Positions 1-28,951 of a DNA stretch of 64,000 nt are shown piece after piece. Both the position numbers and the translations under genes were made by a program. Each line of letters starts with the position of its first letter. Within the stretch, counting starts at the first letter, position 1. The notes below the pieces were generated by a model, which was given only the letters and a program-made list of their open reading frames with translations, had not been told where the DNA came from and did not search any database. The stretch is from Escherichia coli (GTDB lineage Bacteria > Pseudomonadota > Gammaproteobacteria > Enterobacterales > Enterobacteriaceae), in assembly GCF_003790525.1 (NCBI RefSeq), contig NZ_CP033635.1; one strand, written 5' to 3'.

Positions 1-3265
<3,265 letters not shown>

Positions 3266-3428
3266 TTAAACGGCTTAACAAAAATCCAGTAATATGGATT
3301 AAAAAGCAGACTAAACCCCAAATATTTCTTATGTTTTACTTTAGACCTATTCACAGCGGTTATTGTGTGCAAATACGCCTCTTGTTACAACCTTAACCCC
3401 AATGACCGATTTTCGGGAGAGCGACACC

Positions 3429-11204: not shown

Positions 11205-11311
11205 TTAATTAAAGTGGCATCCTCCCGCATCCTCTCTGATAATGACGGGATGCCGGGAGCAATCATGTCTGCTTCCTGAACTTTCTTCTGACAGATCAAT
11301 GGATGCCAGTA

Positions 11312-12277: not shown

Positions 12278-12335
12278 CACGCTGGCAGTGAGTTAAATAA
12301 GCCTCTGCTACGTAAGGGTTATAGCTTTTGCCTTA

Positions 12336-12358
12336 AAGATGCATTTAAAATGCATCTT
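12336..12358. promoter_or_regulatory. NsrR operator in the ytfE promoter
   Basis: AAGATGCATTT-A-AAATGCATCTT, a perfect 11-1-11 palindrome about 27 bp upstream of the ytfE ATG; matches the known NsrR box. Confidence 0.8.
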
Positions 12359-12384
12359 ATCTTATTAAGAATGAGGTATCAGCT

Positions 12385-13047
12385 ATGGCTTATCGCGACC
12401 AACCTTTAGGTGAACTGGCGCTCTCTATTCCTCGCGCTTCGGCTCTGTTTCGTAAATATGATATGGATTACTGCTGTGGCGGTAAGCAGACGCTGGCGCG
12501 CGCGGCGGCACGTAAAGAACTGGATGTTGACGTCATTGAAGCCGAACTGGCAAAGCTTGCTGAACAACCGATTGAGAAAGACTGGCGTAGCGCCCCGCTG
12601 GCGGAAATCATCGACCACATTATTGTGCGCTATCACGATCGCCATCGCGAGCAGCTGCCGGAGCTGATCCTGCAAGCGACTAAAGTCGAGCGCGTTCACG
12701 CCGACAAACCAAGTGTGCCAAAAGGGCTGACAAAATACCTGACTATGCTGCATGAAGAGCTTTCCAGCCATATGATGAAAGAAGAGCAAATTCTCTTCCC
12801 GATGATCAAACAAGGCATGGGCAGCCAGGCAATGGGGCCAATCAGCGTAATGGAAAGCGAGCACGATGAAGCGGGCGAACTGCTGGAAGTGATCAAACAC
12901 ACCACCAATAACGTCACACCGCCGCCGGAAGCCTGCACCACCTGGAAAGCGATGTATAACGGCATTAATGAACTGATTGATGACCTGATGGAGCACATCA
13001 GTCTGGAAAACAATGTACTATTCCCGCGCGCGCTGGCGGGTGAGTGA
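12385..13047 (+). CDS. ytfE: Iron-sulfur cluster repair di-iron protein YtfE (RIC)
   Basis: 220-aa [36 protein letters not shown]...; hemerythrin-like motifs. Confidence 0.94.
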
Positions 13048-13054
13048 TTTGTTC

Positions 13055-13090
13055 GATCAACGATCCTGACATGGGCAGGATCGTTGATTA
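13055..13090. terminator. Hairpin between convergent ytfE and the accessory ORF
   Basis: tcaacgatcct-gacatgggc-aggatcgttga stem-loop (11-bp arms) immediately after the ytfE stop; weak T-tract. Confidence 0.5.
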
Positions 13091-13091
13091 T

Positions 13092-14585
13092 TCAGTCATT
13101 CAGTGGAAGTAATTCATTGTTGTAACTGGTGTACTTACCTTCAACGGTAAGCAAACTGCCGTTTTTATCAAGATGCGCCGCATCGAGTTGTCGAGTCTCA
13201 TTACGCCGCTTCGCATCACGTACCAGCCCATCGCCTACGTAATAAATATAGTGGTCATCATGAGCAAAGGTATCTGATAATTGACCATTGGCGTATTTAA
13301 ACCACGTCCATTGGCCTTTCAGTTCAAAATGCTCAACCGTGTCTTCATCAATAAAATACGTATAGCGATCGTCATGTGCTAAATAATTTAATGGTGTGCC
13401 ATCGGGGCTTTTATACCACTGCCATTGCCCATTAATATCAAAAATAGTCACATCATCGCGCGCGATGAAATAAATTTTGTTCCCTACAACATTAGCACCT
13501 TTCTGTAATTCTTGTTGTGGGTCTGGTAAATGTATGACCGACAGCGTTTTTTCGACCGCAGATATATATTTCACCAGATAGAGCGAATCTTTATATTGCG
13601 CCACATTCTCCGTCAGCGGGCGAAAATATTCCGGATCAACATCAGGAATTGTCGCAACCCGGCAGTCATTAGCACGCCTGGAAGCATCACGCGTCATCCA
13701 GGTTACTTTATCCCGCTGTAGGTCAAATATACTTCGGCAGTTTTTACCGAACGCATAACGTTTCTCCCCGTCTTTATCGCGATAAATTAGCAGTGAACCG
13801 GCTATCCAGCGCACAATATGAAAGGTATCCGGATCGGCGTTGATGGCATCTCCATTCACAAAGACCTGCGATTTAGTCCGCCAGATTGTATCCCAGGGTC
13901 CCGGATTACTTTTGCTTTCGCAGCTATTAGGTGAATAAATAATGGGACGACGTGTCCAGGGTTTAATGTCAAGAATAGAATACCCTTGCGCACTACCTAA
14001 CCAGCGCCCCTGAAAGTAAAGATTGCGACGATCTTTCAGCACATCCGCGGAATCAAGTGAATTCATCCTTCCCCCCACCTGTTGCAGCGAATCCATATCG
14101 ACCTGCTTTTCGCCGTGATTATCATCCGTGCGTTCGCCATCAAAATAGAGGCTGTCTTTATCGGCAGCAAAACGCCCCCATGCGCGGAATGTTGCGGCAT
14201 CGACTTTCGGTGTTCCCGGCGGGTTCTGAACTATTTTCCCTGCCCATAAAATATGGCGGCCATCAGTCAACCAGTCGAAACGCCAACCACCGTTGGTTCT
14301 GATATAAGCGCCACCATCCACCCGCACAAAATCATTATTGATATCATCAGGAGAATCATATTCATCATCAGTGCCGTCAGATACACGGCGCAGTTGTTTG
14401 AACCTCACCTGCGGTAAATGAATATCCGGAAAATAGAGTCCGTAACCATCGCTATCTTCAACAATATATTTTGTTCCTTGCCCCCACGGTTGGTAATAAA
14501 AAGAGGCAGATGGTACGCCGGAGCAGGCTATTGAATTGAGTGAAAATAAAGCCAGTGCGAGACAAACGGGTTTAATTGGTAACAT
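13092..14585 (-). CDS. Secreted repeat protein, DKNYY-like (function unknown), longer paralog
   Basis: 497-aa ORF; N-terminal signal peptide MLPIKPVCLALALFSLNSIACSG; motifs VDAATF...FAADKDSLYFDG and ADPDTF...YRDKDGE; C-terminal W-rich tandem repeats; paralogous to the next ORF. Confidence 0.78.
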   Translation of the reverse strand: MLPIKPVCLALALFSLNSIACSGVPSASFYYQPWGQGTKYIVEDSDGYGLYFPDIHLPQVRFKQLRRVSDGTDDEYDSPDDINNDFVRVDGGAYIRTNGGWRFDWLTDGRHILWAGKIVQNPPGTPKVDAATFRAWGRFAADKDSLYFDGERTDDNHGEKQVDMDSLQQVGGRMNSLDSADVLKDRRNLYFQGRWLGSAQGYSILDIKPWTRRPIIYSPNSCESKSNPGPWDTIWRTKSQVFVNGDAINADPDTFHIVRWIAGSLLIYRDKDGEKRYAFGKNCRSIFDLQRDKVTWMTRDASRRANDCRVATIPDVDPEYFRPLTENVAQYKDSLYLVKYISAVEKTLSVIHLPDPQQELQKGANVVGNKIYFIARDDVTIFDINGQWQWYKSPDGTPLNYLAHDDRYTYFIDEDTVEHFELKGQWTWFKYANGQLSDTFAHDDHYIYYVGDGLVRDAKRRNETRQLDAAHLDKNGSLLTVEGKYTSYNNELLPLND

Positions 14586-14617
14586 AGCGTCATCCTGATG
14601 CTGTTAGCGTGAATAGG

Positions 14618-15775
14618 TTATTTAAATAAGGGTTTAAGCCCGCTCGGGGGTTGCTTCACCGATAACCAACCTCCCTTGCCTAAGTTATAACGCAGCCATT
14701 CACCTTGTTGGGCGTGTTCTTTCCCAATTCCAGTCGCTTGTTGAGTGTAAAGCTGCCCGTCTGTTGATATAAACGTGTTAGTTAATCCCCAACTACCCCC
14801 TGCTTCAAGTGAGTCGGAGAGATCCTCTGGCTTGAGATTAACCAACTCACCTTCGCCCAGGGCGTTAATTGTGACTTTATATATTTGGTTCTTATATAAA
14901 CCGGTATTCCGAACAAACAGATAAAAATATTCCGGATCAACTCCCGCCAGCGTTTCATAAATACACTCACTGCCCGCTGGAGTGGCTTCATATTTGAGCC
15001 AGGACACGTTATTCAGACCAATATTAAAAGGTGCACAGCGATAGCTGGTATCCTCCAGCTCATAGTCACGCTCGCCGCTTTTATCGCGATAAACTAAGCG
15101 TTCGCCAGGCATCCAACGTTTAATCTGAAAAGTTTTGCGATCGGCGGGCAGTGGCTTGCCATTAACAATCACCTGCGAATTTGTCTGCACAACAAATTGC
15201 AGGGAGGAATCATGCCGCAGGATTTGAAATCCGTCAGCGCTTCCCAACCAGTGCCCCTTATGCCAAAGACTATTTTTATCACGCAGTAAATTCCAGATGT
15301 CCGTCTCTTCAAGCGTTGACATATCCACCTGCTTATCACCGCTATTATCATCGGTACGCTGACCATCAAAATAGATACTGCGTTTATCAGCAGCGAAAGC
15401 GCCGAATGCCTGAAAACTGGCAGCGTCGACTATAGGTTTACCGGGGGGATTTTTCAGGACTTTGCCAGACCAAAGAACAGAGCGTCCATCGGTGAGCCAG
15501 GCATGTTCGCAATCCCCCTCATCATCGCAATCGAACTTATCGGGATTAAAATCGGACAGTAACCGGGAATCTTGTTTATTGGCTAAATTGGCAATACGCC
15601 AAAGGCGGGAAAAATTAATATCTGGTAATTCGGAGAGGATCTCATCTTTTTCCCCCTTCTGTTCGACAACATAAACCGTGCCTTTCTCCTGCTGGCGGTA
15701 ATAAAAATCCGCGCCCCAGGAAGGTGAAATAGAGGGAGGTAATGCGGCGATTAATAACCAACTGCGCTTAACCAT
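14618..15775 (-). CDS. Secreted repeat protein, DKNYY-like (function unknown), shorter paralog
   Basis: Start placed at MVKRSWLLIAALPPSISPSWGA (signal peptide, 385 aa). The track ORF extends to 16003 but would overlap the cycA 3' end, so that extension is rejected. Confidence 0.72.
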   Translation of the reverse strand: MVKRSWLLIAALPPSISPSWGADFYYRQQEKGTVYVVEQKGEKDEILSELPDINFSRLWRIANLANKQDSRLLSDFNPDKFDCDDEGDCEHAWLTDGRSVLWSGKVLKNPPGKPIVDAASFQAFGAFAADKRSIYFDGQRTDDNSGDKQVDMSTLEETDIWNLLRDKNSLWHKGHWLGSADGFQILRHDSSLQFVVQTNSQVIVNGKPLPADRKTFQIKRWMPGERLVYRDKSGERDYELEDTSYRCAPFNIGLNNVSWLKYEATPAGSECIYETLAGVDPEYFYLFVRNTGLYKNQIYKVTINALGEGELVNLKPEDLSDSLEAGGSWGLTNTFISTDGQLYTQQATGIGKEHAQQGEWLRYNLGKGGWLSVKQPPSGLKPLFK

Positions 15776-15849
15776 AATGAACTCTGCAACGAGTGGCAAA
15801 GATCCACGGTAAGCTCGCGCCTGAGGGCTGTCTATGATGGTAGATTTTT

Positions 15850-15890
15850 TTAGGAATATATAAAGACAAAGGCACCCGCAGGTGCCTTTC
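15850..15890 (-). terminator. cycA terminator hairpin
   Basis: aaaggcacc-cgc-aggtgccttt stem-loop about 20 nt after the cycA stop, followed on the minus strand by a T-rich tract. Confidence 0.6.
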
Positions 15891-15908
15891 AGAGTTATAA
15901 ACGCGGCA

Positions 15909-17312
15909 TTACTTCGCCATGCGTTTTTTACCAATAAACAGCCAGCCCAGCCCCAGCGCGATAAACCACAGCGGGGTAACCAGCAGCGCCTGGCGGGTGT
16001 CATCTTCCAGTGTCAACAACACCAGAACAAACACAAAGAACGCCATACATACCCAGCACATCAGCTTGCCGAGTGGCATCTTGTAGATCGACTTCTCATG
16101 CAGATGAGGACGCTGTTTGCGATACACCAGGTACGAGCAAAGGATAATCGTCCAGACAAACATAAACAGAATCGCGGAAACGGTTGTAATCATCGTGAAC
16201 GCGCCAATCACGCTGGGATTCACATACAACATCACCACGCCGCCGAGCAGACAGATACAAGAGAAGGTCAGCCCTTTCGCGGGTACTGCGCGCTTAGAGA
16301 GTTTAGCGAACGCTTTCGGTGCCACACCTTCCTGGGCCAGACCAAACAGCATACGGCTGGTAGAGAAGACACCGCTGTTAGCGGAAGACGCCGCAGAGGT
16401 CAGCACCACAAAGTTGATCACGCTGGCAGCCGCAGGCAAACCTACCAACACAAACAGTTCAACGAACGGGCTTTTCTCCGGGACTACCGAACTCCACGGC
16501 GTCACGGACATAATCACAATCAGCGAGAAGACGTAGAACATAATGATACGGATCGGAATGGAGTTAATCGCGCGTGGCAGTGATTTCTCTGGATCTTTGG
16601 TTTCCGCAGCGGTGGTACCTACCAGCTCAATCCCTACGAAAGCGAAAACCGCTATCTGGAATCCAGCAAAGAAGCCACTTAAGCCTTTCGGGAACCAGCC
16701 GCCGTCATTCCACAAATGTGCAAATGATGCTTCCACACCGGTCGGTGACTGAAAGTGCATCGCCACCATGACCAGGCCGACAACAATCAGCGACACGATG
16801 GCGACGATTTTGATCATCGCAAACCAGAACTCCATCTCACCGAACATTTTTACCGTGGCGAGGTTTAGAACCAGTAACAGAATGATCACGGATAACGAAG
16901 CAACCCAGTCAGAAAGCCCAGGGAACCAGAATTGCGCATAGGCGGTAATGGCAACCACGTCTGCCATACCGGTTACAACCCAGCAGAACCAGTAAGTCCA
17001 GCCGGTGAAATATCCTGCCCACGGCCCGAGTAAATCGGAAGCGAAGTCACTAAAAGATTTGTATTCCAGATTCGAAAGCAGCAATTCCCCCATTGCCCGC
17101 ATCACGAAAAAGAGCATAAAACCGATGATCATATAAACGAAAATGATCGACGGCCCGGCAAGGCTAATCGTTTTGCCGGACCCCATAAACAACCCTGTAC
17201 CAATGGCACCGCCAATGGCAATAAGCTGAATATGTCGGTTTGTGAGATTGCGCCGTAGCGACTGTTCAGCCGGAGCCTGATCATCGGCAACGACTTTTAC
17301 CTGATCTACCAT
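15909..17312 (-). CDS. cycA: D-serine/D-alanine/glycine:H+ symporter CycA (APC family)
   Basis: 467-aa ORF MVDQVKVVADDQAPAEQSLRRNLTNRHIQLIAIGGAIGTGLF...; amino-acid permease signature. Confidence 0.94.
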   Translation of the reverse strand: MVDQVKVVADDQAPAEQSLRRNLTNRHIQLIAIGGAIGTGLFMGSGKTISLAGPSIIFVYMIIGFMLFFVMRAMGELLLSNLEYKSFSDFASDLLGPWAGYFTGWTYWFCWVVTGMADVVAITAYAQFWFPGLSDWVASLSVIILLLVLNLATVKMFGEMEFWFAMIKIVAIVSLIVVGLVMVAMHFQSPTGVEASFAHLWNDGGWFPKGLSGFFAGFQIAVFAFVGIELVGTTAAETKDPEKSLPRAINSIPIRIIMFYVFSLIVIMSVTPWSSVVPEKSPFVELFVLVGLPAAASVINFVVLTSAASSANSGVFSTSRMLFGLAQEGVAPKAFAKLSKRAVPAKGLTFSCICLLGGVVMLYVNPSVIGAFTMITTVSAILFMFVWTIILCSYLVYRKQRPHLHEKSIYKMPLGKLMCWVCMAFFVFVLVLLTLEDDTRQALLVTPLWFIALGLGWLFIGKKRMAK

Positions 17313-18241: not shown

Positions 18242-18458
18242 CGTATTTCCTTTCTTAGGGTATAAAGTAGCGGGCAGCATATCAGCCACACTTCTTTGGG
18301 TAAAACTTTGTCGCGGGAATGATGACAAATCCCGGGGAAAAAGAAACAATAGCAATATCCCGTATGAATATAATAAAGGCGGGTTTACCACGGACATCAT
18401 AGCGTTAGCTTATTCATAGGCTATGATTGAGGAACAAGACGCGGAGCAGGAGGAAACC

Positions 18459-19088
18459 ATGCCCGGGCGCTTTGAACTAAAACCAACCCTGGAGAAAGTC
18501 TGGCACGCGCCGGACAATTTTCGCTTCATGGACCCGCTGCCGCCGATGCATCGCCGGGGAGTCATTATTGCGGCAATAGTGCTGATTATCGGTATTCTTC
18601 TGCCTGGAGATGAAACACGCCAGATGCCTGTTGTCACCCGCGAAGCGCAGTTAGATATGCAATCACCCCCCCCAGGTGAAGCACAGCTACAGGCACATTT
18701 AGTGACGCCGCAAAACGATCCGGATCAGGTCGCCCCGGTCGCGCCGGAACCTATTCAGGAAGGTCAACCTGAAGAGCCACCTGTTGCAGAGACACAATCT
18801 TTCCAACCGGAAAGTGGTATCGATCAACAGTGGCGGACATATCGCGTAGAACCAGGCAAGACCCTTGCCCAGCTGTTCCGCGACCATAATTTGCCGCCTA
18901 CAGACGTGTACGCTATGGCCCAGGTCGAGGGCGCGGATAAACCACTCAGTAACCTGCAAAATGGTCAGATTGTTAAAATCCGTCAAAATGCGAATGGGGT
19001 GGTTACCGGCTTAACCATTGATACGGGAAATAATCAGCAAGTCCTGTTCACCCGCCAACCTGATGGTAATTTCATCCGCGCACGCTGA
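18459..19088 (+). CDS. ytfB: Cell-division protein YtfB (OapA/LysM-like C-terminal domain)
   Basis: Start at MPGRFELKPTLEKVWHAPDNFRFMDPLPP; TM segment then a Pro/Gln-rich linker. The upstream ATG at 18423 is possible. Confidence 0.82.
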   Translation: MPGRFELKPTLEKVWHAPDNFRFMDPLPPMHRRGVIIAAIVLIIGILLPGDETRQMPVVTREAQLDMQSPPPGEAQLQAHLVTPQNDPDQVAPVAPEPIQEGQPEEPPVAETQSFQPESGIDQQWRTYRVEPGKTLAQLFRDHNLPPTDVYAMAQVEGADKPLSNLQNGQIVKIRQNANGVVTGLTIDTGNNQQVLFTRQPDGNFIRAR

Positions 19089-19727
19089 TTACCCACGGGC
19101 AGGGTTCACCAAAAGCCAGCTCAGGATGGTCTCTTTGATCACCCTGCGTCTGGCTTCCAAAGCCTCAGGTGAAACCATGCTAATGTGATAAACCATCCCC
19201 AGTGTGTACTGGTTTATTAAATAATATGCACCCAGTGCGGCGATATTAATGTTGATTTGTAAGGGATCAATATATTTCTTAAAGGTTTTCTGCCGCTGCC
19301 CTTCTTCTAATAATGAAGCCATTGACTGCAAATGTGCATGGTTAATTTCAGCGAGGCGTTTTGATTTTTTATAATGCACACCCTTACTTTGGTTTTCACT
19401 ATGGACAATTTTTAAAAACCACGGGTTATTGATGTAATAATCCCAAGTAAAATCAATTATTTTCTCGATCGCAATAACCGGCGAAAGCCCTGAAATGTCA
19501 AGCTCTCTCTCTTTTTCGCGAATATCGTTCCAGGTATATTCCAGTACTTCAATAAACAAATTTTCTTTATTACCAAAGTGGTGATAAACCGTCTGTTTAC
19601 TGCACCCTGCTGCCTTAACAATATTATCTACTCTGGCCCCTTCGTAACCATATTCGGCAAATTCATTAACCGCGCATAGCAGCAATTTTTCCTTCAGGTT
19701 TTGTGCGTGACTGGTATCAAGATACAT
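19089..19727 (-). CDS. TetR/AcrR-family transcriptional regulator (intact)
   Basis: Start placed at [58 protein letters not shown] (TetR HTH), with a GGGGA-type RBS upstream. Track ORF upstream Met codons lack an RBS. Divergent from the downstream operon. Confidence 0.8.
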
Positions 19728-19848
19728 TCCACTTCCCCACTTCCTCTTCGTGATGGCTATCATAACCGGATTTGATCTCAGCGACAGCAAAAAGGATAAA
19801 AGTCGTAATTTCATTGAGTTATCAAATTACCTGTGATCACTCTCGCAT

Positions 19849-19870
19849 ATCAACCAACTAGATGGTTGAT
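19849..19870. promoter_or_regulatory. Candidate TetR operator palindrome in the divergent promoter region
   Basis: ATCAACCA-ACTAGA-TGGTTGAT (8-bp perfect inverted arms) between the TetR start (19727) and the SDR start (19937). Confidence 0.4.
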
Positions 19871-19936
19871 CTTTTTACCTTCCAGTCGCAAGCTAATCAT
19901 CACTCAAGGAAACAATATTCAAAAGAGGGTCATTGT

Positions 19937-20728
19937 ATGAAATCCACTCGTCCTGTTGCTGTCATCACTGGTGCTGCACGTGGTATTGGAAAGGGTTGTG
20001 CGCTGGAACTTGCTCGTAGCGGGTTTAACCTGCTGATTAACGATCGCCCTGATGCCGACAGCGTAGAAAAACTGCATATCACACAACAAGAATGTATGGC
20101 AGAAGGCGTGGAGGTCATTTGCTTCCCTGCCGATGTTGGCGATCTCTCCCTGCATGAAGAGATGCTCGACGCGGCGCAAAACCAGTGGGGGCGTCTGGAC
20201 TGTCTGCTCAACAACGCAGGGATTTCAGTGAAAAAGCGCGGTGACCTCCTCGATCTCGAGCCAGACAGTTTCGACCAAAACATTGCCATCAATACCCGCG
20301 CGCCGTTCTTCCTCGCTCAGGCATTCAGTAAACGTCTGCTCGCACAGCCGAAACCGGAAGCGGAGCTGCCGCACCGCTCGATTATTTTTGTCAGTTCAAT
20401 CAACGCCATCATGCTGGCGATGAATCGCGGCGAATACACCATTGCCAAAACCGCCGTTTCTGCCGCTGCTCGTCTGTTTGCTGCTCGCCTTTGTAATGAA
20501 CAAATTGGCGTTTATGAAGTGCGTCCTGGTCTCATCAAAACCGATATGACTATTCCGGCAACGGCCTATTACGACGAACTGATTGCCAAAGGTCTGGTGC
20601 CGTGGGGACGTTGGGGTTATCCGGCTGATATTGCTTCCACTGTCCGCGCGATGGCGGAAGGTAAACTGATTTACACCTGTGGTCAGGCGGTCGCCATCGA
20701 CGGCGGCTTAAGTATGCCGCGCTTCTGA
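19937..20728 (+). CDS. Short-chain dehydrogenase/reductase (SDR) family oxidoreductase
   Basis: Start MKSTRPVAVITGAARGIGKG (TGxxxGxG) with AGAGGG RBS; NNAG and YxxxK (YTIAK) catalytic motifs. Confidence 0.85.
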   Translation: MKSTRPVAVITGAARGIGKGCALELARSGFNLLINDRPDADSVEKLHITQQECMAEGVEVICFPADVGDLSLHEEMLDAAQNQWGRLDCLLNNAGISVKKRGDLLDLEPDSFDQNIAINTRAPFFLAQAFSKRLLAQPKPEAELPHRSIIFVSSINAIMLAMNRGEYTIAKTAVSAAARLFAARLCNEQIGVYEVRPGLIKTDMTIPATAYYDELIAKGLVPWGRWGYPADIASTVRAMAEGKLIYTCGQAVAIDGGLSMPRF

Positions 20729-20737
20729 GGCTGAATC

Positions 20738-21580
20738 ATGAGAGATCTGTTACAACGCCCGGATTTATTCAGTATCAATACCGCGACACTGGGCTATAAA
20801 ACGCCGCTGCCCGCCATTATTGATGCCTGCGCCGCACGCGGTATTGGCGCCATTGCCCCCTGGCGCAGGGAGTTGCAGGGTGAAGATCTCCAGCAAATCG
20901 CCCGCCAGCTTGCTGCCAGTAACATAAACGTTTCCGGTTTGTGCCGTAGCACCTACTACACCGCACCGACGCTGGCGGAGCGCAAACTGGCGATTGACGA
21001 TAACCGCCGGGCGCTGGACGACGCCGCTGTACTGAACGCCGCCTGTTATATGCAGGTGGTTGGCGGTCTGCCAATGGGAACAAAAGATCTGTACGAAGCG
21101 CGGGAACAGGTGAAACAAGGGATTCGCCAGTTGCTGCCACATTCGAAAGATGTCGGTGTGCCAATTGCACTGGAGCCACTGCACCCGATGACTGCTGCCG
21201 ATCGTTCTTGTCTGTGCACGTTACGTCAGGCGCTGGACTGGTGTGATGAACTCGATCCCGATGGCGAATTTGGCCTCGGCGTGGCGGTAGATGTCTACCA
21301 TGTCTGGTGGGATCCGGATCTCGTCAGTCAGATCCTGCGTGCCGGAAAACGCATCCTCGCGTTTCATGTTTCCGACTGGTTAGTGCCGACCACCGATCTG
21401 GTCAATGACCGTGGAATGCCGGGAGATGGTGTCATCAATATTCCGTCAATTCGTCGGCTGGTTGAAAACGCCGGATTTAATGGCGCTATTGAACTGGAAA
21501 TATTCTCACCGTATTGGTGGCAGCAAGATATTGACAGCACACTGGATATTAGCGTCGATCGCATCGCGCATTATTGCTAA
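20738..21580 (+). CDS. Sugar-phosphate isomerase/epimerase-like protein (xylose-isomerase-type TIM barrel)
   Basis: 280-aa ORF; family call from overall similarity to TIM-barrel AP-endonuclease-2/xylose-isomerase-like proteins (IALEPLHP region); weaker than a motif-based call. Confidence 0.65.
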   Translation: MRDLLQRPDLFSINTATLGYKTPLPAIIDACAARGIGAIAPWRRELQGEDLQQIARQLAASNINVSGLCRSTYYTAPTLAERKLAIDDNRRALDDAAVLNAACYMQVVGGLPMGTKDLYEAREQVKQGIRQLLPHSKDVGVPIALEPLHPMTAADRSCLCTLRQALDWCDELDPDGEFGLGVAVDVYHVWWDPDLVSQILRAGKRILAFHVSDWLVPTTDLVNDRGMPGDGVINIPSIRRLVENAGFNGAIELEIFSPYWWQQDIDSTLDISVDRIAHYC

Positions 21581-21589
21581 GGAATAATC

Positions 21590-22366
21590 ATGAGTGACCA
21601 ACCCGTTCTGTTCAGCAGAGCGGCGGCTTCTTGCCGCCTGACATTGAACCGTGAAGATAAATGTCATGCTATTAATGAAGAAATGATCGAATCTCTCGAC
21701 CATTATTTAAATGAAATTGAAAACGACACCACATTACGATTAGTCGAATTAACGGCAACCGGCGATAAATTCTTTTGTGCAGGCGGCGATATTAAATCGT
21801 GGTCAGCCTATTCGCCATTAGATATGGGCAGAAAATGGATTAAACGCGGCAATGACGTTTTTAATCGCCTGCGCAATTTACCTCAATTAACGGTTGCGAA
21901 TCTCAACGGTCATACCATCGGCGGTGGTATTGAACTTGCCTTGTGCTGCGATATTCGTATTGCTCGCCCCAGCGCGAAATTCTCTAATCCGGAAGTAATG
22001 CTCGGCATGGTGCCTGGCTGGATGGGCATTGAACGCGTGCTTAATCAGGTCGGTCCGGTGGTCGGTCGCCAGATGCTGATGCTGGGTAAACGCCTGACGG
22101 CGCAGGAAGCTCAGGCGGCGAATTTAATTGATGAAGTGGTAGAAAAAGAACAGGTGGAAAGCTGGATGGCGAATCAGTTAGCGCAGCTGGAAAAATGTGG
22201 TCCGGTGGCGCTTGCACATATTAAGCAACTGATTCTGGCACTGGAAAATAAACATGCCGATTACCCGCACCAGCTACTGGCCGGATTAATGTCCGCCACT
22301 CAGGATTGCCAGCAGGCGACGCGCGCCTTTGCCGAAAAAAGTAGCGTGAGCTTCCATAATCAATAA
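21590..22366 (+). CDS. Enoyl-CoA hydratase/isomerase (crotonase) family protein
   Basis: 258-aa ORF; crotonase-fold motifs (FCAGGDIKSW, GHTIGGGIELALCCDIRIA). Confidence 0.85.
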   Translation: MSDQPVLFSRAAASCRLTLNREDKCHAINEEMIESLDHYLNEIENDTTLRLVELTATGDKFFCAGGDIKSWSAYSPLDMGRKWIKRGNDVFNRLRNLPQLTVANLNGHTIGGGIELALCCDIRIARPSAKFSNPEVMLGMVPGWMGIERVLNQVGPVVGRQMLMLGKRLTAQEAQAANLIDEVVEKEQVESWMANQLAQLEKCGPVALAHIKQLILALENKHADYPHQLLAGLMSATQDCQQATRAFAEKSSVSFHNQ

Positions 22367-22375
22367 GGAAATTGT

Positions 22376-23917
22376 ATGCGTAAGATAACAACCGCCGAGG
22401 CACTGGCGGCGCAAATTCAGGACGGTGCGACTATTGCTATTAGCGGTAACGGCGGCGGTATGGTGGAAGCCGACCATATTCTGGCTGCTATTGAAGCGCG
22501 TTTCCTGCAAACCGGACACCCGCGCGATCTGACATTAATCCACTCGCTGGGTATTGGCGATCGCGACAGCAAAGGCACTAACCGTTTTGCTCACGCCGAA
22601 ATGCTCAAACGCATTATTGCCGGACATTTTACCTGGTCGCCCAAGATGCAGGAACTGGTGAAAAGCAATGCTATTGAAGCCTACTGTTTCCCTGGTGGCG
22701 TGATTCAGGCGTTGCTACGGGAGATCGGTGCCGGACGTCCGGGGCTTTTTACCCACGTTGGGCTGGGATCGTTTGTTGATCCACGCAATGGCGGCGGTAA
22801 GTCGAATGAATGCACTACCACCGACCTGGTAGAACTGATTGAAATCGATGGTGAAACCAAACTTCGTTATCGCCCTTTCAAAGTGGATTACGCGATTTTG
22901 CGTGGCACTTATGCCGATCCTCGAGGCAACGTCAGCCTTGAAGAAGAAGCGATTGATATGGATAGCTATTCCATGGCGCTGGCAGCACACAACAGCGGCG
23001 GCAAAGTGTTCGTACAGGTACGCGATGTGCTGGAAGCTGGCGCGATTGAACCACGTCGGGTCAAATTACCGGGGATTCTGGTTGATGGCATCGTTGAGCA
23101 CCGCGAACAACCGCAAACCTATCTTGGTGGTTACGACCTGACCATTAGCGGTCAACATCGCCGTCTAAGTTCTAACGACGCTATTGAACTGGTTAGTCAT
23201 CCGGTGCGTCGCCTGATTGCCCGTCGGGCAGCACGGGAACTGGTGGCAGGCGCTTCAACCAACTTTGGCTTTGGTATTCCGGGCGGTATTCCAGGCGTAG
23301 CGCTGCGCGAAGGCGTGCCTTATCAAAGTTTGTGGCTGAGTGTAGAACAGGGTGTACATAACGGCATGATGCTGGATGATGCTCTGTTCGGCTGCGCCCG
23401 TAACGCCGATGCCATTATTCCATCACTCGATCAATTCGAATTCTACAGTGGCGGAGGGATCGATATCACCTTCCTCGGCATGGGAGAGATGGATCAGTAC
23501 GGTAACGTCAACGTCTCCCATCTCAATGGCAATCTGATTGGCCCCGGCGGATTTCTCGAAATTGCGCAAAACGCCCGTAAAGTGGTGTTCTGCGGCACGT
23601 TCGACGCCAAAGGTAGCAAGATTGATGTAACGCCAGATGGCTTGCATATCGCCCAGTCAGGTCAAATCCCTAAACTGGTTACCCAGGTGGAAAAAATCAC
23701 TTTTAGCGCCGCCTACGCACAGCAAAGTGGTCAGGAAGTGTTGTATATCACTGAACGTGCAGTATTCCAGTTAACGGCAGAAGGCGTTGAATTAATTGAA
23801 ATCGCACCAGGTGTGGAGATTGAGCGCGACATTCTGCCGTATATGGCCTTCCGTCCAATTATCAATCAGCCACGCCTGATGGAAAGTAGCCTGTTTACGC
23901 CGATGGAGGATGCATGA
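22376..23917 (+). CDS. Family-I CoA-transferase (acyl-CoA:acetate/3-ketoacid CoA-transferase, YdiF-like fused subunits)
   Basis: 513-aa ORF; C-terminal ITERAVFQLTAEGVELIEIAPGVEIERDILPYM closely resembles the YdiF C-terminus (...ITERAVFTL...LIEIAPGVD...) as I recall it. Confidence 0.8.
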   Translation: MRKITTAEALAAQIQDGATIAISGNGGGMVEADHILAAIEARFLQTGHPRDLTLIHSLGIGDRDSKGTNRFAHAEMLKRIIAGHFTWSPKMQELVKSNAIEAYCFPGGVIQALLREIGAGRPGLFTHVGLGSFVDPRNGGGKSNECTTTDLVELIEIDGETKLRYRPFKVDYAILRGTYADPRGNVSLEEEAIDMDSYSMALAAHNSGGKVFVQVRDVLEAGAIEPRRVKLPGILVDGIVEHREQPQTYLGGYDLTISGQHRRLSSNDAIELVSHPVRRLIARRAARELVAGASTNFGFGIPGGIPGVALREGVPYQSLWLSVEQGVHNGMMLDDALFGCARNADAIIPSLDQFEFYSGGGIDITFLGMGEMDQYGNVNVSHLNGNLIGPGGFLEIAQNARKVVFCGTFDAKGSKIDVTPDGLHIAQSGQIPKLVTQVEKITFSAAYAQQSGQEVLYITERAVFQLTAEGVELIEIAPGVEIERDILPYMAFRPIINQPRLMESSLFTPMEDA

Positions 23918-25995
23918 GCCAGCTTGATGACACCCTCCTTGATGCGCTCACACACGTCACTTTTCCAAAGGGTTTTGTGTCAGCAGAGCCAGCGTCAATT
24001 GTCACCGTTGAGGATGTTGATTACCCGATCTGGCAAGTTGATGCGCTGGTCGTTGGTAGCGGCGCAGCAGGATTACGTGCGGCAGTTGAACTTAAACGCC
24101 GCCAGCAAAATGTGCTGATCGCCACCGCCGGGTTATATATGGGGACATCGGCATGTTCTGGCTCTGATAAACAAACACTGTTTACCGCCGCTACCGCGGG
24201 CAACGGCGACAACTTCACCAAACTGGCAGAGGCACTGGCGAGCGGTGGGGCGATGGATCACGACACCGCTTATGTCGAAGCGGTAGGTTCTCTGCACACT
24301 CTAGGCGGGTTGCAATATCTTGGTCTGGAATTACCGGAAGATCGCTATGGCGCGATTCTTCGTTATCAAACCGACCATGACGAAGCCGGGCGTGCAACCT
24401 CGTGTGGGCCGCGTACCTCAAGGTTAATGGTGAAAGTGCTGCTGGAAGAAGTACAGCGTCTTGCTATCCCAATGTTGACCAGTGCAACAGTGATTAAACT
24501 GCTACATCAGCGTGACGAAAACGGCGAAGACCGCGTGGCGGGGGCAATCCTCGCGACCGGTCATCGCGCCCATAACCCATGGGGGCTGGCAATTGTGACT
24601 GCGCCCAATGTGGTACTGGCAACAGGAGGGCCTGGCGAGCTTTATCGCGACAGTGTGTATCCACACAAATGTTTCGGCTCACTGGGGCTGGCGCTGGAGG
24701 AAGGTCTGACGCTCACCAATCTGACCGAAAGCCAGTTTGGTATCGGCACAACGCGCAGCACCTTTCCGTGGAATTTGTCCGGGACTTATGTACAGGTGAT
24801 CCCATATATCTATTCCGTGGATGCCGGGGGTAACGAGTATAACTTCCTCGCGGATTACTATCGCACCACCCAGGAGCTGGCTTCAAACATTTTCCGTAAA
24901 GGCTATCAGTGGCCGTTCCACGCCACGCGGGTAATGGATTTTGGCTCCAGCTTGTTAGATATGGCAGTAGCGCAAGAGCAGCAATCAGGGCGTCAGGTAT
25001 TTATGGATTTCAATCGTAATCCTGAACCTGTGCCGGGTGACCTGCCGTTCTCATTAGATCGACTGGACGACGACGTTCGCGCGTATCTGGAAAATAACGA
25101 CGCTCTGGCACCATCGCCCATCGAACGACTGCAACGAATGAATCCGCTGTCTATCTCGCTGTATAAGATGCACGGTTACGATCTCACCACGCAGCCATTG
25201 CAGTTTGCCATGAATAATCAGCATATGAATGGCGGCATTGAAGTCGATATCTGGGGACAAACATCTCTGCCCGGTTGTTTTGCAGTGGGGGAAGTTGCTG
25301 GCACACACGGCGTCACCCGACCTGGCGGCGCGGCGTTGAATGCCGGGCAGGTTTTTGCTGTTCGTCTGGCACGTTTTATTGGTTGCACGCAAAAGCGGAA
25401 TATTGATGGAGATATAGCACAGCTGGCAGCTCCGGCACTGGCTTCTATAAGAGAGATCATTACTCAGGCGCACGATAACGGGACCGGGATGCCGTTGTCG
25501 GTTGTGAGAGAAAAAATTCAGGCACGAATGTCTGACCATGCGGGATTTATTTGCCATGCCGATAAAGTCCGACGTGCCACTCGTGATGCCCTGCTATTGA
25601 ACGAATTTGTGCAACGACATGGATTGGCAATCAAACATGTGGGTGAAGTTGCCGAGCTGTTTATGTGGCGGCATATGACGCTGACTTCTGCCGCCGTCTT
25701 AACTCAACTGACACATTATATTGATGCAGGTGGTGGTAGCCGGGGAGCACGTATTATTCTCGACAGGGATGGAAATTCTATTCCGCAAACACGAAATGGT
25801 TTTTGTGATGCCTGGCGCTTTCGTTCAGAGCGTACTGAGGATAAAAAAGATAAACTGCTTATTCATTATTGCAACAGTATCTTTCACGTCAGAGAAACAC
25901 CTGTCCGTGAGTTTCCCACTATCCGCGGCATTTGGTTTGAAAAAAACTGGCCTGGCTTTCTTAATGGGACAATTTACCAGCCACAGGATGAATGA
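23914..25995 (+). CDS. FAD-dependent oxidoreductase (fumarate-reductase/succinate-dehydrogenase flavoprotein-like)
   Basis: 693-aa ORF; N-terminal dinucleotide fold VDALVVGSGAAGLRAAVE; ATGA overlap with the upstream CoA-transferase stop. Confidence 0.75.
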   Translation: MSQLDDTLLDALTHVTFPKGFVSAEPASIVTVEDVDYPIWQVDALVVGSGAAGLRAAVELKRRQQNVLIATAGLYMGTSACSGSDKQTLFTAATAGNGDNFTKLAEALASGGAMDHDTAYVEAVGSLHTLGGLQYLGLELPEDRYGAILRYQTDHDEAGRATSCGPRTSRLMVKVLLEEVQRLAIPMLTSATVIKLLHQRDENGEDRVAGAILATGHRAHNPWGLAIVTAPNVVLATGGPGELYRDSVYPHKCFGSLGLALEEGLTLTNLTESQFGIGTTRSTFPWNLSGTYVQVIPYIYSVDAGGNEYNFLADYYRTTQELASNIFRKGYQWPFHATRVMDFGSSLLDMAVAQEQQSGRQVFMDFNRNPEPVPGDLPFSLDRLDDDVRAYLENNDALAPSPIERLQRMNPLSISLYKMHGYDLTTQPLQFAMNNQHMNGGIEVDIWGQTSLPGCFAVGEVAGTHGVTRPGGAALNAGQVFAVRLARFIGCTQKRNIDGDIAQLAAPALASIREIITQAHDNGTGMPLSVVREKIQARMSDHAGFICHADKVRRATRDALLLNEFVQRHGLAIKHVGEVAELFMWRHMTLTSAAVLTQLTHYIDAGGGSRGARIILDRDGNSIPQTRNGFCDAWRFRSERTEDKKDKLLIHYCNSIFHVRETPVREFPTIRGIWFEKNWPGFLNGTIYQPQDE

Positions 25996-26015
25996 TATTG
26001 CAAAGGTTAATCACT

Positions 26016-26492
26016 ATGCGAAATATAATTAGATCTATTAATGCTCTGCTTGCAACATTGAATATTACCATTTTGGCGATCATTGTGGCATGTGTGACAT
26101 GGCAAGTGGTAGCACGATTTATATTTAAAAGCCCCAGTATATTTACGGATGAACTCAGTCGTTTGCTTTTTATTTGCCTTGGCCTTTTTGGTGGTGCCTA
26201 TACCGCGGGGCAGAACCGGCATCTGGCGATTGATCTGCTTCCTATGATGCTGAAAGGAAAAGCCCGGCGTCATTTATTTTTGTGTATTCAGATTATCGTT
26301 ATTATCTTCTCTACCATCATTATGGTATATGGTGGTGGGCTATTAACGCTGGACACATTCGATTCAGGTCAAACCTCACCCGCTTTAGGCTGGCAGATGG
26401 GATATATCTATATGAGTATCCCGATTAGTGGTGTTCTTATTATTATATACACCATAGATATGGTTTTAACAGAACTTAAACAACCACTCTAA
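26016..26492 (+). CDS. TRAP transporter small permease (DctQ family)
   Basis: Four-TM small hydrophobic protein; start placed at MRNIIRSINALLATLNIT with AAGG RBS. An ATG at 25992 overlapping the upstream stop is an alternative. Confidence 0.78.
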   Translation: MRNIIRSINALLATLNITILAIIVACVTWQVVARFIFKSPSIFTDELSRLLFICLGLFGGAYTAGQNRHLAIDLLPMMLKGKARRHLFLCIQIIVIIFSTIIMVYGGGLLTLDTFDSGQTSPALGWQMGYIYMSIPISGVLIIIYTIDMVLTELKQPL

Positions 26493-26534
26493 AGATAATA
26501 AACAACAACCAACCATAGTAGGAATGGAGAAATT

Positions 26535-27836
26535 ATGGATTACTGGTTACCGATTATTGTGTTATTTGGTGCCTTCTTTTTTATGTTGGCATTAGGTGTA
26601 CCTATTGTTTATGCCATTGGTTTATCCACACTGGCATCAATTTCCACACAACTCGATTTCAACTCAGCATTGAGTGTGGTTTCCCAAAAGTTAGCCTCCG
26701 GGTTAGATAGCTTTACATTATTGGCAATTCCATTTTTTATTTTGTCTGGCAACATTATGAATCATGGAGGAATAGCGCGACGATTAATCAACTTTGCCAG
26801 AATTCTTGGCGGTCGACTGCCTGGCTCACTTGCTCACTGTAATATTCTTGCCAATATGCTGTTCGGGGCAATTTCTGGTTCAGCTGTTGCTTCGGCGGCT
26901 GCGATGGGCGGCGTCATGCATCCGCAACAGGTTAAAGAGGGCTACGACCCGGCATTCAGTACTGCGGTTAACGTTGCCTCTGCCCCGACGGGTTTGCTTA
27001 TTCCACCAAGTAATACGTTAATCGTCTATTCACTGGTCAGTGGTGGTACTTCTATTGCCGCACTGTTCCTGGCGGGTTATGTTCCGGGAATTTTGCTGGG
27101 TCTGGCACTGATGGTAATAGCCGGTATTATCGCGGTACGTCGCGGTTATCCAAAGCCAGAACGCCCGACTTTACGCCAGGCTGGCGTTGCGATATGGATG
27201 GCTATCCCCAGTATTTTCCTGATTATTTTAATTATGGGGGGTGTATTAAGTGGTATTTTTACCCCGACAGAGGCCTCCGCAATTGCAGTAATTTATACCC
27301 TTTTCCTTGCACTGGTTCTTTATCGTGAAATCTCAGTTAAAGATTTACCTAAAATATTTCTGGAATCCGTTATTACCACTGCAATTGTCTTGTTATTAAT
27401 TGGTTCTTCGATGGGAATGTCATGGGCGATGTCAAACGCTGACGTTCCCTTCCTGATTCTCGATTTGCTTAACACTATTTCTGACAACCCAATAATAATC
27501 CTGCTTATTATCAATATTATCCTGTTGATTATCGGCACTTTTATGGATATGACACCGGCGGTACTGATTTTTACGCCGATATTTTTACCGGTTGTCACCG
27601 AACTGGGCATGGACCCGATTCACTTTGGTATTGTCATGGTACTGAACATGTGTATCGGTATTTGTACTCCGCCTGTAGGCAGTGTGTTATTTGTCGGTTG
27701 TAGTGTATCTAAATTACCGATTAATAAAATTATCAAACCTATGCTGCCATTTTATGCCGTGATGGTATTGGTGCTGGCAATGGTGACCTATATTCCGCAA
27801 ATCAGTATGGCATTGCCAAGAGCACTGGGTTACTGA
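26535..27836 (+). CDS. TRAP transporter large permease (DctM family)
   Basis: 433-aa polytopic membrane protein MDYWLPIIVLFGAFFFMLALGVPIVYAIGL... typical of DctM. Confidence 0.88.
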   Translation: MDYWLPIIVLFGAFFFMLALGVPIVYAIGLSTLASISTQLDFNSALSVVSQKLASGLDSFTLLAIPFFILSGNIMNHGGIARRLINFARILGGRLPGSLAHCNILANMLFGAISGSAVASAAAMGGVMHPQQVKEGYDPAFSTAVNVASAPTGLLIPPSNTLIVYSLVSGGTSIAALFLAGYVPGILLGLALMVIAGIIAVRRGYPKPERPTLRQAGVAIWMAIPSIFLIILIMGGVLSGIFTPTEASAIAVIYTLFLALVLYREISVKDLPKIFLESVITTAIVLLLIGSSMGMSWAMSNADVPFLILDLLNTISDNPIIILLIINIILLIIGTFMDMTPAVLIFTPIFLPVVTELGMDPIHFGIVMVLNMCIGICTPPVGSVLFVGCSVSKLPINKIIKPMLPFYAVMVLVLAMVTYIPQISMALPRALGY

Positions 27837-27888
27837 TGCGCATTCACTGGCGGCACCTGCCGCCATATTTATTAGAAAAGGAACATCT

Positions 27889-28860
27889 ATGAAAATAAAA
27901 GTATCCGCTGGCATTATCGGTGCTGTTCTTATGTTATCCGCAAGCCAGTCCTGGGCAGTGACATTAAAACTGAGTCATAATCAGGATAAGTCTCATCCTG
28001 TTCATAAAGCGATGGAGTTCTTTGCGAAAAAGAGCAAAGAGTACTCTAACGGTGATATTACTATTCGTATTTATCCAAATGGAACATTGGGTACTCAACG
28101 AGAAACAATGGAGCTGATTCGTTCTGGCGCTATTCCACTGGTAAAAACCAACGCGGCAGAAATGGAAGCATTTGAAAATTCCTATAAATTATTTAGCCTG
28201 CCTTATTTGTTCCGCGATCGTGATCATTATTATCAGGTCATGCAGGGCGATATCGGGAGAAAAATCCTCGACTCAACGAAAAGCAAAGGTTATTTCGGGC
28301 TGACTTTTTATGATGGAGGCGCCCGCAGTTTCTACGGCAATAAACCAGTACTGAAACCAGACGATCTCAAAGGCATGAAAGTCCGTGTCCAGCCAAGTCC
28401 TGGCGCAGTTGAAATGATCAAAGTCATGGGCGGTAACCCGACGCCACTGGATTACGGCGAGTTGTATACAGCCTTACAGCAGGGTGTGGTCGATATGGCA
28501 GAAAACAGCGTGATGGCGCTGACCACCATGCGTCACGGTGAAGTGGCAAAATCCTTCAGCCTTGACGAACACACTATGGTTCCCGATGTGGTTCTGATGA
28601 GCAATGCTGCGTTTGATAAACTTAGCCCGGAAAATCAGGCAGTTATATTAAAAGCAGCTAAAGAATCAATGAGCTACATGAAAGACTTGTGGAGCGAGGA
28701 AGAGAAACAAGAATTTGCAAAACTGGATAAAATGGGCGTGAAAGTCTACCAGGTAGATAAAGCTCCGTTTATCGAGAAAGTACAGCCAATGTACGCAAAC
28801 TTCGCTAAGGACAACCCAGCCCTTGCCCCAATGCTGGCTGATATTCAGGCAGCTAAGTAA
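27889..28860 (+). CDS. TRAP transporter periplasmic solute-binding protein (DctP family)
   Basis: 323-aa ORF with signal peptide MKIKVSAGIIGAVLMLSASQSWA; DctP-type binding protein. Confidence 0.88.
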   Translation: MKIKVSAGIIGAVLMLSASQSWAVTLKLSHNQDKSHPVHKAMEFFAKKSKEYSNGDITIRIYPNGTLGTQRETMELIRSGAIPLVKTNAAEMEAFENSYKLFSLPYLFRDRDHYYQVMQGDIGRKILDSTKSKGYFGLTFYDGGARSFYGNKPVLKPDDLKGMKVRVQPSPGAVEMIKVMGGNPTPLDYGELYTALQQGVVDMAENSVMALTTMRHGEVAKSFSLDEHTMVPDVVLMSNAAFDKLSPENQAVILKAAKESMSYMKDLWSEEEKQEFAKLDKMGVKVYQVDKAPFIEKVQPMYANFAKDNPALAPMLADIQAAK

Positions 28861-28924
28861 TTATCTTCGTAGGGCTGCTTATTGTGGCCCTTATCGATAT
28901 CTGCAAGTGCTCGCTACAAAAGCA

Positions 28925-28951
28925 AAACGCCGACCAATGGTCGGCGTTTTT
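28925..28951. terminator. Bidirectional rho-independent terminator (accessory operon / rplI)
   Basis: aaacgccgacc-aatg-gtcggcgttttt: GC stem flanked by an A-tract on one side and a T-tract on the other, between convergent dctP-like gene and rplI. Confidence 0.7.

Follow-up and report, generated by a model that had tools for sequence, protein, structure and literature searches.

Does the TRAP (tripartite ATP-independent periplasmic) transporter encoded downstream of a run of enzyme genes in Escherichia coli contig NZ_CP033635.1 form a single unit with these genes, and does it import their substrate? Both were proposed in a first-pass annotation of part of the 64,000-nt stretch analyzed here (the window), and the region it described makes up the 3′ two-thirds of a catabolic operon of eight genes (19937–28860) at the ytfB-rplI locus, in which five enzyme genes are followed by the three genes for the transporter. 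We hold it to be probable that this is a single catabolic operon for the uptake of a sugar acid by the TRAP system and for its processing by enzymes linked to coenzyme A (CoA), with a transporter that can be swapped for another one. As operon architecture the arrangement is ordinary, even textbook, and needs no new biology. A literature search covering the gene combination, yjfZ with TRAP, uronate with CoA enzymes, 7VPF and SMc04130 turned up no account of what the operon does.

Gene content and exchange of the transporter

The 10 kb around the transporter and enzyme genes are 100 % identical to E. coli SMS-3-5, and the RefSeq annotation of that identical sequence places the operon between ytfB and the convergent gene rplI. 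The annotated order is a TetR-family regulator gene on the minus strand and then, all on the plus strand, genes for a short-chain dehydrogenase/reductase (SDR), a TIM barrel of the sugar-phosphate isomerase/epimerase family, an enoyl-CoA hydratase, an acyl-CoA:acetate/3-ketoacid CoA-transferase, an oxidoreductase with flavin adenine dinucleotide (FAD) and the TRAP proteins, assignments that agree with our Pfam and NCBIfam profile matches. The SDR oxidoreductase (19937–20728) belongs to the NCBIfam PRK12745 '3-ketoacyl-ACP reductase' family by profiles and RefSeq, and is followed by a xylose-isomerase-like TIM barrel (20738–21580; Pfam PF01261), a putative keto-sugar isomerase/epimerase; a crotonase-family enoyl-CoA hydratase/dehydratase (21590–22366; Pfam ECH_1); a YdiF-like, family I fused CoA-transferase of 513 aa (22376–23917); and a soluble FAD protein of 693 aa (23914–25995; Pfam FAD_binding_2), which belongs distantly to the SdhA/FrdA/NadB superfamily, has a capping region of its own and is referred to below as the flavoprotein. 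The transporter genes are dctQ (26016–26492; small membrane subunit, 158 aa; full Pfam DctQ profile), dctM (26535–27836; large membrane subunit, 433 aa; Pfam DctM and TIGR00786) and dctP (27889–28860; periplasmic solute-binding protein, 323 aa; Pfam DctP).

All eight genes lie on the same strand, with junction gaps from the SDR gene through dctP of 9, 9, 9, −4, 20, 42 and 52 nt, in this order. Consensus scans returned 13 promoter-like sites, against 15.1 in shuffled sequence, and 13 terminator-like sites, against 11.4, with no site of either kind at the flavoprotein/dctQ junction; an Rfam search found no element, its one match, of 24.8 bits where the gathering score is 97, being sub-threshold and dismissed. 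The only convincing terminator follows dctP, at 28924–28950, where a hairpin with a 12-bp stem between runs of A and T is predicted to act as a bidirectional intrinsic terminator shared with the convergent rplI; it sits in core DNA, since homology to K-12 and to strain S88 resumes at 28918–28919. Together with the comparative evidence, which supports it well, this makes the enzyme and transporter genes look like one transcription unit, as originally proposed. One long mRNA would then carry the five coupled enzyme genes, followed by dctQ, dctM and dctP with their own Shine-Dalgarno (SD) sequences, and would end at the rplI terminator.

The TRAP cassette is present in 1445 of the 5426 complete E. 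coli genomes, and in another form of the locus (1667/5426) the same five enzyme genes are followed by a gene for a 425-aa transporter of the major facilitator superfamily (MFS), so that the five-enzyme pathway, adding both forms, occurs in 3112 of the 5426 genomes (about 57 %). This MFS transporter belongs to the ACS family (D-galactonate/hexuronate subfamily) and is labelled as hexuronate-transporter-like by one source. The ytfB-rplI locus of other genera contains the MFS form in Klebsiella oxytoca and Salmonella, and TRAP genes in the order Q-M-P in K. huaxiensis and in an enteric contig, L089. Farther away, a genome of the Rhodocyclaceae (63.5 % GC) contains the same five enzymes, with 40–62 % identity, beside an orthologous TRAP system whose Q, M and P subunits are 67, 85 and 76 % identical, respectively, to those of E. 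coli. An organic-acid transporter, TRAP or MFS, is thus always attached to the enzyme set, which argues that the transporter is functionally linked to the enzymes; it is probably a replaceable module feeding the five of them. The idea that the TRAP system imports the substrate of these enzymes consequently gains from the comparison, both from the MFS sugar-acid transporter found at the same position and from the linkage of enzymes and TRAP genes in Rhodocyclaceae. In the Rhodocyclaceae operon dctP is inverted, and a gene for a MaoC-like dehydratase precedes the SDR gene.

The recombination breakpoint between the TRAP and MFS forms maps inside the 3′ end of the flavoprotein gene (25700–25760), by the identity between SMS-3-5 and S88: their DNA is 97–99 % identical over most of this gene, 57–63 % identical over its last ca. 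280 bp, and shows no identity thereafter, and their flavoproteins are 96 % identical over residues 1–600 and 56 % from residue 601 on. We considered whether the C-terminal tail of the flavoprotein tracks the type of transporter across genera, which was rejected because it shows 51–57 % identity to both types. Two further stretches differ between these strains: the first ca. 180 bp of the flavoprotein gene (23914–24094), which are 77–80 % identical before identity rises to 97–99 % further on, and ytfB and ytfA (18423–19900), which at 67–86 % identity are unusually divergent within one species. Judging by these identities, the SMS-3-5 and S88 alleles form a mosaic.

Gene junctions, the start of dctQ and regulatory signals

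We took as an indication of translational coupling a stop/start overlap, or a stop codon lying a few nt from the following start, whose SD falls within the upstream gene, and this configuration occurs at the four junctions among the enzyme genes. The stop codon of the SDR gene lies inside the SD of the TIM-barrel gene (TGAGG), with a 9-nt gap, and at the TIM-crotonase and crotonase-CoA-transferase junctions, also with 9-nt gaps, the sequence TAAGGA covers both the stop codon and the SD. The fourth junction is the ATGA at 23914–23917, in the context ggatgcATGAgc, where the ATG at 23914 opens the flavoprotein gene and the TGA at 23915–23917 closes that of the CoA-transferase; the flavoprotein start is preceded, 3 nt upstream, by GGAGGA, the strongest SD of the operon (−9.3 kcal/mol). 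This overlap, already pointed out in the first-pass annotation, is kept in five enterobacterial lineages (E. coli S88, K. oxytoca, Salmonella, K. huaxiensis and contig L089), and is replaced by an 11-nt gap in the Rhodocyclaceae homolog. Overlaps of the 4-nt type also occur at nnr/tsaE, mutL/miaA and ulaE/ulaF within the same 50 kb; they are a routine operon feature, and what is informative here is the conservation of the overlap and not its existence. Some database entries (P0003, of 1078 aa, P0033 and P0087) show the CoA-transferase fused to the flavoprotein as a single long protein, presumably as a result of a 1-nt change or of a gene-calling artefact at the ATGA overlap. At the other end of the enzyme genes, a start for the SDR gene at 19862 was rejected because it has no SD; the start at 19937 has one and is the choice of the Prokaryotic Genome Annotation Pipeline (PGAP).

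The FAD-dctQ, dctQ-dctM and dctM-dctP junctions (20, 42 and 52 nt) do not show this configuration, and dctQ, dctM and dctP are each preceded by their own SD. A strict translational coupling of the transporter to the enzymes would need dctQ to start at a second ATGA (gaATGAtat), which is indeed present on the plus strand at the flavoprotein stop codon (25992–25995) and offers an in-frame ATG with AGGA 3 nt upstream, but we consider such a start extremely unlikely. The spacing of 3 nt from the SD is poor; these four positions read ATAA in another E. coli lineage (locus L005), whose flavoprotein is 94 % identical; and PGAP placed the start at 26016, where the ATG is preceded by AAAGG. The N-termini of DctQ in K. 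huaxiensis (MRKMIK), contig L089 (MRQVIK) and Rhodocyclaceae (MQRAMK) align with MRNIIR, the sequence encoded from 26016, so the orthologs begin at the equivalent methionine, and the sequence upstream of it is not homologous: the flavoprotein-dctQ spacer is 20 nt here, 91 nt in K. huaxiensis (8046–8135 in locus L088), 12 nt in contig L089 and 228 nt in Rhodocyclaceae (locus L090). The preference expressed earlier for the start at 26016 was thus right. Since the ATGA at 25992 is not a genuine start, no transporter gene overlaps any enzyme gene, and the claim that the enzyme genes are translationally coupled to those of the transporter is overstated, its sole candidate overlap being a non-conserved, accidental ATG next to a variable spacer. 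Tight translational coupling, as predicted from the junctions, would be limited to the five enzyme genes. The long dctQ spacers of K. huaxiensis and Rhodocyclaceae suggest that expression of the transporter may be organized differently there.

The dctM-dctP spacer contains, on the plus strand, a GC-rich hairpin with a 7-bp stem (27848–27865; UGGCGGC-ACCU-GCCGCCA) that is followed by the U-rich tail UAUUUAUU, and that could serve for attenuation of transcription or for stabilizing a processed dctP mRNA. It occurs in both E. coli lineages examined. A role as a conserved regulatory element of general occurrence was nevertheless rejected, because the hairpin is absent from the corresponding spacers of K. 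huaxiensis and contig L089 and because its stability does not differ significantly from that of shuffled sequences (z = −1.7).

Upstream of the operon, and divergent from it, there is a full-length gene for a TetR-family regulator (19089–19727, minus strand; Pfam TetR_N and TetR_C_29, and a RefSeq coding sequence), a regulator that has been named ytfA and listed as variable among E. coli strains (PMC6790063). The 209-bp divergent promoter region contains a palindrome, ATCAACCA-N6-TGGTTGAT (19849–19870), that is likely the operator of YtfA: while the spacer around it varies, its core, CAACCA-N6-TGGTTG, is the same in the two E. coli forms, K. oxytoca, Salmonella and K. huaxiensis, and contig L089 differs in one position of one arm (CTGGTTG). 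YtfA would thus act as a repressor that binds the palindrome and leaves the promoter free in the presence of the substrate or of an intermediate.

The TRAP transporter and its gene order

The three transporter proteins match the TRAP profiles at full length (PF03480, 2–285/286; PF04290, 1–131/132; PF06808, 1–413/413), and TIGR00786 and TIGR00787 score above their cutoffs for TRAP proteins, identifying, by family profiles, a three-component transporter of the DctP type. In such systems periplasmic capture of an organic acid is the task of DctP and ion-coupled uptake that of DctQM, and we assume the same sequence of events here, with DctP handing its ligand over to DctQM. The N-terminus of DctP reads MKIKVSAGIIGAVLMLSASQSWA, followed by the mature domain, and is a predicted signal peptide by its translation and by the structural model (mean confidence, pLDDT, of 89.7), in which residues 1–20 are disordered, with pLDDT below 50. 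Residues R146 and R166 are invariant in 37 homologs, and their spacing of 20 residues is the same as that between R127 and R147 of SiaP. An alignment pairing residues 26–309 of DctP with 5–290 of the SiaP chain has an offset that fits this match of arginines, at the level of ranges and not of individual residues. In SiaP, R147 is the conserved arginine of solute-binding proteins that pairs with the carboxylate of the ligand (PMC4646407). The nearest structures to DctP, with 30–39 % identity, are TRAP solute-binding proteins from the Enzyme Function Initiative, including 4X8R and 4N8Y, which were solved with bound glucuronate and galacturonate, respectively (PMC11668362).

The order dctQ-dctM-dctP, confirmed by the full-length Pfam matches and by the RefSeq annotation of SMS-3-5, had been singled out as departing from a common arrangement in which the gene for the binding protein comes first. 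The latter is indeed the majority arrangement of TRAP systems according to a review (PMC5812351). It was also found in the five unrelated TRAP systems situated near homologs of the flavoprotein in the loci compared (5/5), four of them with the order P-Q-M and the fifth with Q undetected. The Q-M-P order is, however, not remarkable, because the YiaMNO system of E. coli also has it. The yiaK-S operon of K-12, for 2,3-diketo-L-gulonate, resembles the operon described here in that Q (yiaM), M (yiaN) and P (yiaO) are co-directional and tightly packed with genes for sugar-acid catabolic enzymes, within the same species, and DctM matches the YiaN model with 291 bits. It differs in having no CoA-transferase, crotonase or flavoprotein and in that YiaMNO is encoded in mid-operon, whereas the TRAP genes are at the end here; moreover, the proteins of the two systems score below the equivalog cutoffs and are paralogs, not orthologs.

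Comparison with relatives suggests a plausible history for this order. In Vibrio cholerae, Providencia and Aeromonas, the closest outgroup, the enzyme operon begins with dctQM, from which dctP diverges; in Rhodocyclaceae dctP is convergent to the enzymes-Q-M block; and in the enterics it lies downstream, in the same orientation. The Q-M-P order would then be a historical by-product, in which a separately transcribed dctP came to lie downstream of, and co-oriented with, the other genes, from the divergent arrangement of the outgroup to the enteric one.

Candidate pathway and distribution of the operon

The outgroup also gives a first indication of the substrate, since the solute-binding proteins of V. 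cholerae, Providencia and Aeromonas, 54–61 % identical to DctP, are encoded in uxaC/uxuB/uxuA clusters, together with kdgK and eda in Vibrio and Aeromonas, and with GH2/GH31 genes in Vibrio and Providencia, a setting typical of the classical pathway for glucuronate utilization. Likewise, homologs of the flavoprotein in alphaproteobacteria and Planctomycetes are encoded beside KdgK, Eda, levoglucosan-dehydrogenase-like proteins, oxidoreductases of the GMC family and sugar ABC transporters. Neither uxaC nor uxuA nor uxuB was found among the neighbors of the operon by Pfam or in the RefSeq annotation and, the enzymes of the uronate isomerase pathway being absent, the operon is not a further copy of the known type of glucuronate operon. 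The transporter is best seen as a putative descendant of the hexuronate TRAP lineage, and not filed as a member of it, with binding of D-glucuronate or D-galacturonate suggested by homology only. Probably, a sugar acid resembling a hexuronate (a polyhydroxy-carboxylate) is the substrate, and it is processed in part as CoA thioesters.

The translation of the SDR gene has the TGxxxGIG and YxxxK motifs, and that of the crotonase gene both motifs with a catalytic glutamate, GGGIELAL and NPEVMLG. The closest structures to the TIM barrel, which also point to a sugar acid, are 'sugar isomerases' of unknown function (3QC0, 3JU2 and 7VPF), and IolI and ketose 3-epimerases come next. The CoA-transferase aligns end to end with YdiF (2AHU; E = 5.6e-115), its E324 aligning with YdiF E333, reported in the 2AHU/2AHV work to be the catalytic glutamate that forms the enzyme-CoA thioester; by this alignment it is a fused alpha/beta enzyme of family I (YdiF/SCOT type) that keeps the catalytic residue.

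The match of the flavoprotein to PF00890 spans residues 43–475, and its family comprises 418 representatives at E<1e-30, across which VVGSGAAG, QH437MNGG and H465GVTR469PGG are conserved and align with AAHYTCGG and LHGANR of NadB. The flavoprotein thus keeps the GxGxxG of the FAD-binding domain and the His and Arg motifs (HxxxGG and HGxNR) that lie close to the flavin in NadB/SdhA. Its profile matches to these two proteins are confined to the FAD domain and the C-terminal part, and positions ca. 255–397 did not align, in a profile search, to any solved member of the superfamily. The alignment to the NadB profile ends at ...NLtEsQF, where the family has QFGIG and where NadB and SdhA carry QFHPT. 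No His/Arg pair of a capping domain, for the second carboxylate of fumarate, succinate or aspartate, could be recognized. We therefore rejected the possibility that the flavoprotein is a fumarate reductase or an aspartate oxidase, given a capping region that cannot be aligned and that lacks this pair and the histidine of QFHPT.

In the pathway that we envisage, hydroxyl and keto groups would be rearranged by the SDR together with the TIM-barrel isomerase/epimerase. A CoA thioester, made by the YdiF-like CoA-transferase, would undergo (de)hydration by the crotonase, and the neighboring C=C bond would be either reduced or introduced by the FrdA/NadB-like flavoprotein; the order of these steps is conjectural. 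We suggest, as a tentative and rather doubtful proposal, that this amounts to an undescribed CoA-thioester route for a hexuronate-like compound, with a new branch of the FrdA/NadB superfamily and a long-lived polymorphism for uptake in which a high-affinity TRAP system and an MFS symporter would alternate at one locus. In this proposal the transferase would activate the carboxylate, the crotonase would make use of the thioester for eliminating or adding a beta-hydroxyl, the flavoprotein would act on the C=C bond so formed, and the SDR and the isomerase would adjust stereochemistry.

Several observations weigh against a single operon for CoA-linked sugar-acid catabolism. Co-transcription and coupling are predicted from spacing alone, the SD of dctQ is weak (−3.8 kcal/mol), and the U-tailed dctM-dctP hairpin, with two promoter-like sites inside dctM, could allow dctP to be partly expressed on its own. 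The GC content is ca. 53 % in the enzyme genes and 40–45 % in the TRAP genes, a drop that, together with the recombination breakpoint, points to a separate evolutionary history of the TRAP cassette. Additionally, SDR-TIM-FAD clusters of Pseudescherichia, Phytobacter, Mangrovibacter and Brenneria have neither CoA-transferase nor crotonase, so the flavoprotein may not act on a CoA ester, and the MFS transporters of such related clusters score best as aromatic-acid/H+ symporters or as PcaK-like, which weakens the assignment of a sugar acid. The cassette might, then, be a passenger inserted by recombination, with its own signals and a cargo unrelated to the enzymes, as the fall in GC at the cassette, the sharpness of the breakpoint in the flavoprotein gene, the 91- and 228-nt spacers of K. 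huaxiensis and Rhodocyclaceae, the inverted dctP of the latter, and the hairpin and promoter-like sites upstream of dctP would allow; we consider this very unlikely, however, because the spacer here is of just 20 nt with no promoter-like site upstream, because the same TRAP subfamily accompanies the same enzymes in Enterobacteriaceae and Rhodocyclaceae despite the low identity of the enzymes (40–62 %), and because the position always holds an organic-acid transporter (TRAP or ACS-type MFS) in four genera.

The substrate could also be a hydroaromatic or aromatic acid (quinate/shikimate-like or a phenylpropanoid) whose CoA ester is reduced by the flavoprotein, an explanation that we find unlikely even if it accounts for the PcaK-like transporter beside SDR-TIM-FAD in Brenneria and for the best match of the Pseudescherichia-type MFS transporter, an aromatic-acid/H+ symporter. 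The CoA-transferase being closest to YdiF would agree with it, ydiF lying near ydiB/aroD in K-12, as would the dehydroshikimate dehydratase fusion 5HMQ found among the TIM barrels of this fold; but both transporters of the E. coli-type operon come from sugar-acid lineages, the closest relatives of the TIM barrel are sugar isomerase/epimerase-like, and KdgK and Eda are neighbors of the flavoprotein family in many genomes. The latter also tells against a reductive electron sink of the carnitine (cai) type, with CoA transfer to a hydroxy-acid, dehydration by the crotonase, reduction by the flavoprotein, recycling of CoA and excretion of the product in place of its assimilation, because flavoproteins homologous to that of the operon occur without CoA enzymes and beside the assimilatory KdgK and Eda; furthermore, the SDR and the TIM barrel would have no role in such a loop, and the CoA-transferase is of family I whereas CaiB is of family III. 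The trio of CoA-transferase, crotonase and flavoprotein does parallel the established logic of CaiB/CaiD/CaiA in the cai operon, the superfamily of the flavoprotein is that of fumarate reductase, and Pfam and NCBIfam scans found no thiolase or lyase for carbon-chain cleavage encoded in the operon, yet we judge a sink of this kind to be decidedly unlikely.

A catabolic operon for a sugar acid remains our preferred reading, and its closest known counterparts share only part of its composition. The hexuronate TRAP systems of Vibrio, Aeromonas and Providencia have the closest outgroup of solute-binding proteins and a dctQM pair co-transcribed with catabolic enzyme genes, but their dctP is divergent and they have the classical enzymes of the isomerase pathway, whereas the operon described here has neither and dctP follows dctM; at ca. 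57 % identity the ligand may have changed. The cai operon and the deoxyribonate cluster of Klebsiella michiganensis resemble it in combining dedicated uptake, a CoA thioester and beta-oxidation-type enzymes in one cluster, and the acyl-CoA intermediates of the deoxyribonate pathway set a precedent for CoA thioesters of sugar acids (PMC6365646). Both, however, lack the TIM barrel and the FrdA-like flavoprotein, and the cai operon has a family III CoA-transferase and a reductase of the acyl-CoA-dehydrogenase type. Identity with the deoxyribonate cluster was rejected, since the latter has a CoA-synthetase, a thiolase, a glycerate kinase, a lactonase and two MFS transporters (PMC6365646). Further counterparts are the clusters TetR-SDR-Gfo/Idh/MocA-TIM-MFS-FAD (Pseudescherichia, Phytobacter and Mangrovibacter) and SDR-TIM-FAD (Brenneria), which share a TetR_C_29 regulator, orthologous SDR, TIM and FAD proteins (the flavoproteins being 56–60 % identical to that of the operon) and a carboxylate-type MFS transporter; a Gfo/Idh/MocA dehydrogenase replaces the CoA-transferase and the crotonase, and the transporters are of other families. 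These clusters are likewise uncharacterized.

The operon has been lost from K-12 and shows signs of decay elsewhere. The ytfA pseudogene of K-12 corresponds to the 3′ part (two-thirds) of the TetR gene (19089–19472 in the window; 3088–3596 in K-12 locus L002), and a 102-bp fragment of the SDR gene, 82 % identical (20026–20127 in the window), is also kept, with yjfZ replacing the rest; to judge from these remnants, K-12 is a deletion derivative at the ytfB-rplI locus. In the MFS form of strain S88 (10978–16325 in locus L085), an internal stop interrupts the flavoprotein gene, annotated as a pseudogene, and strains UTI89, NU14 and UM146 contain an IS1 between the flavoprotein and the MFS genes; by these sequence disruptions, the pathway is decaying in the MFS form of B2 strains. 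S88 also has a hipBA-like toxin-antitoxin pair between the MFS gene and rplI. Beyond cycA (ca. 14000–15800; 4784536–4787219 in the SMS-3-5 record) there are two genes annotated as 'hypothetical protein' where K-12 has ytfE directly, and this two-gene stretch is, by the same kind of comparison, another strain-specific insertion near the locus.

As the operon was lost from K-12, standard laboratory work on this strain would not have met the pathway. The swap between TRAP and MFS transporters is a natural experiment that links transporter and enzymes and offers two independent ways to approach the substrate; should the latter be a sugar acid of the gut or of urine, the operon would act as a niche determinant that varies among strains.

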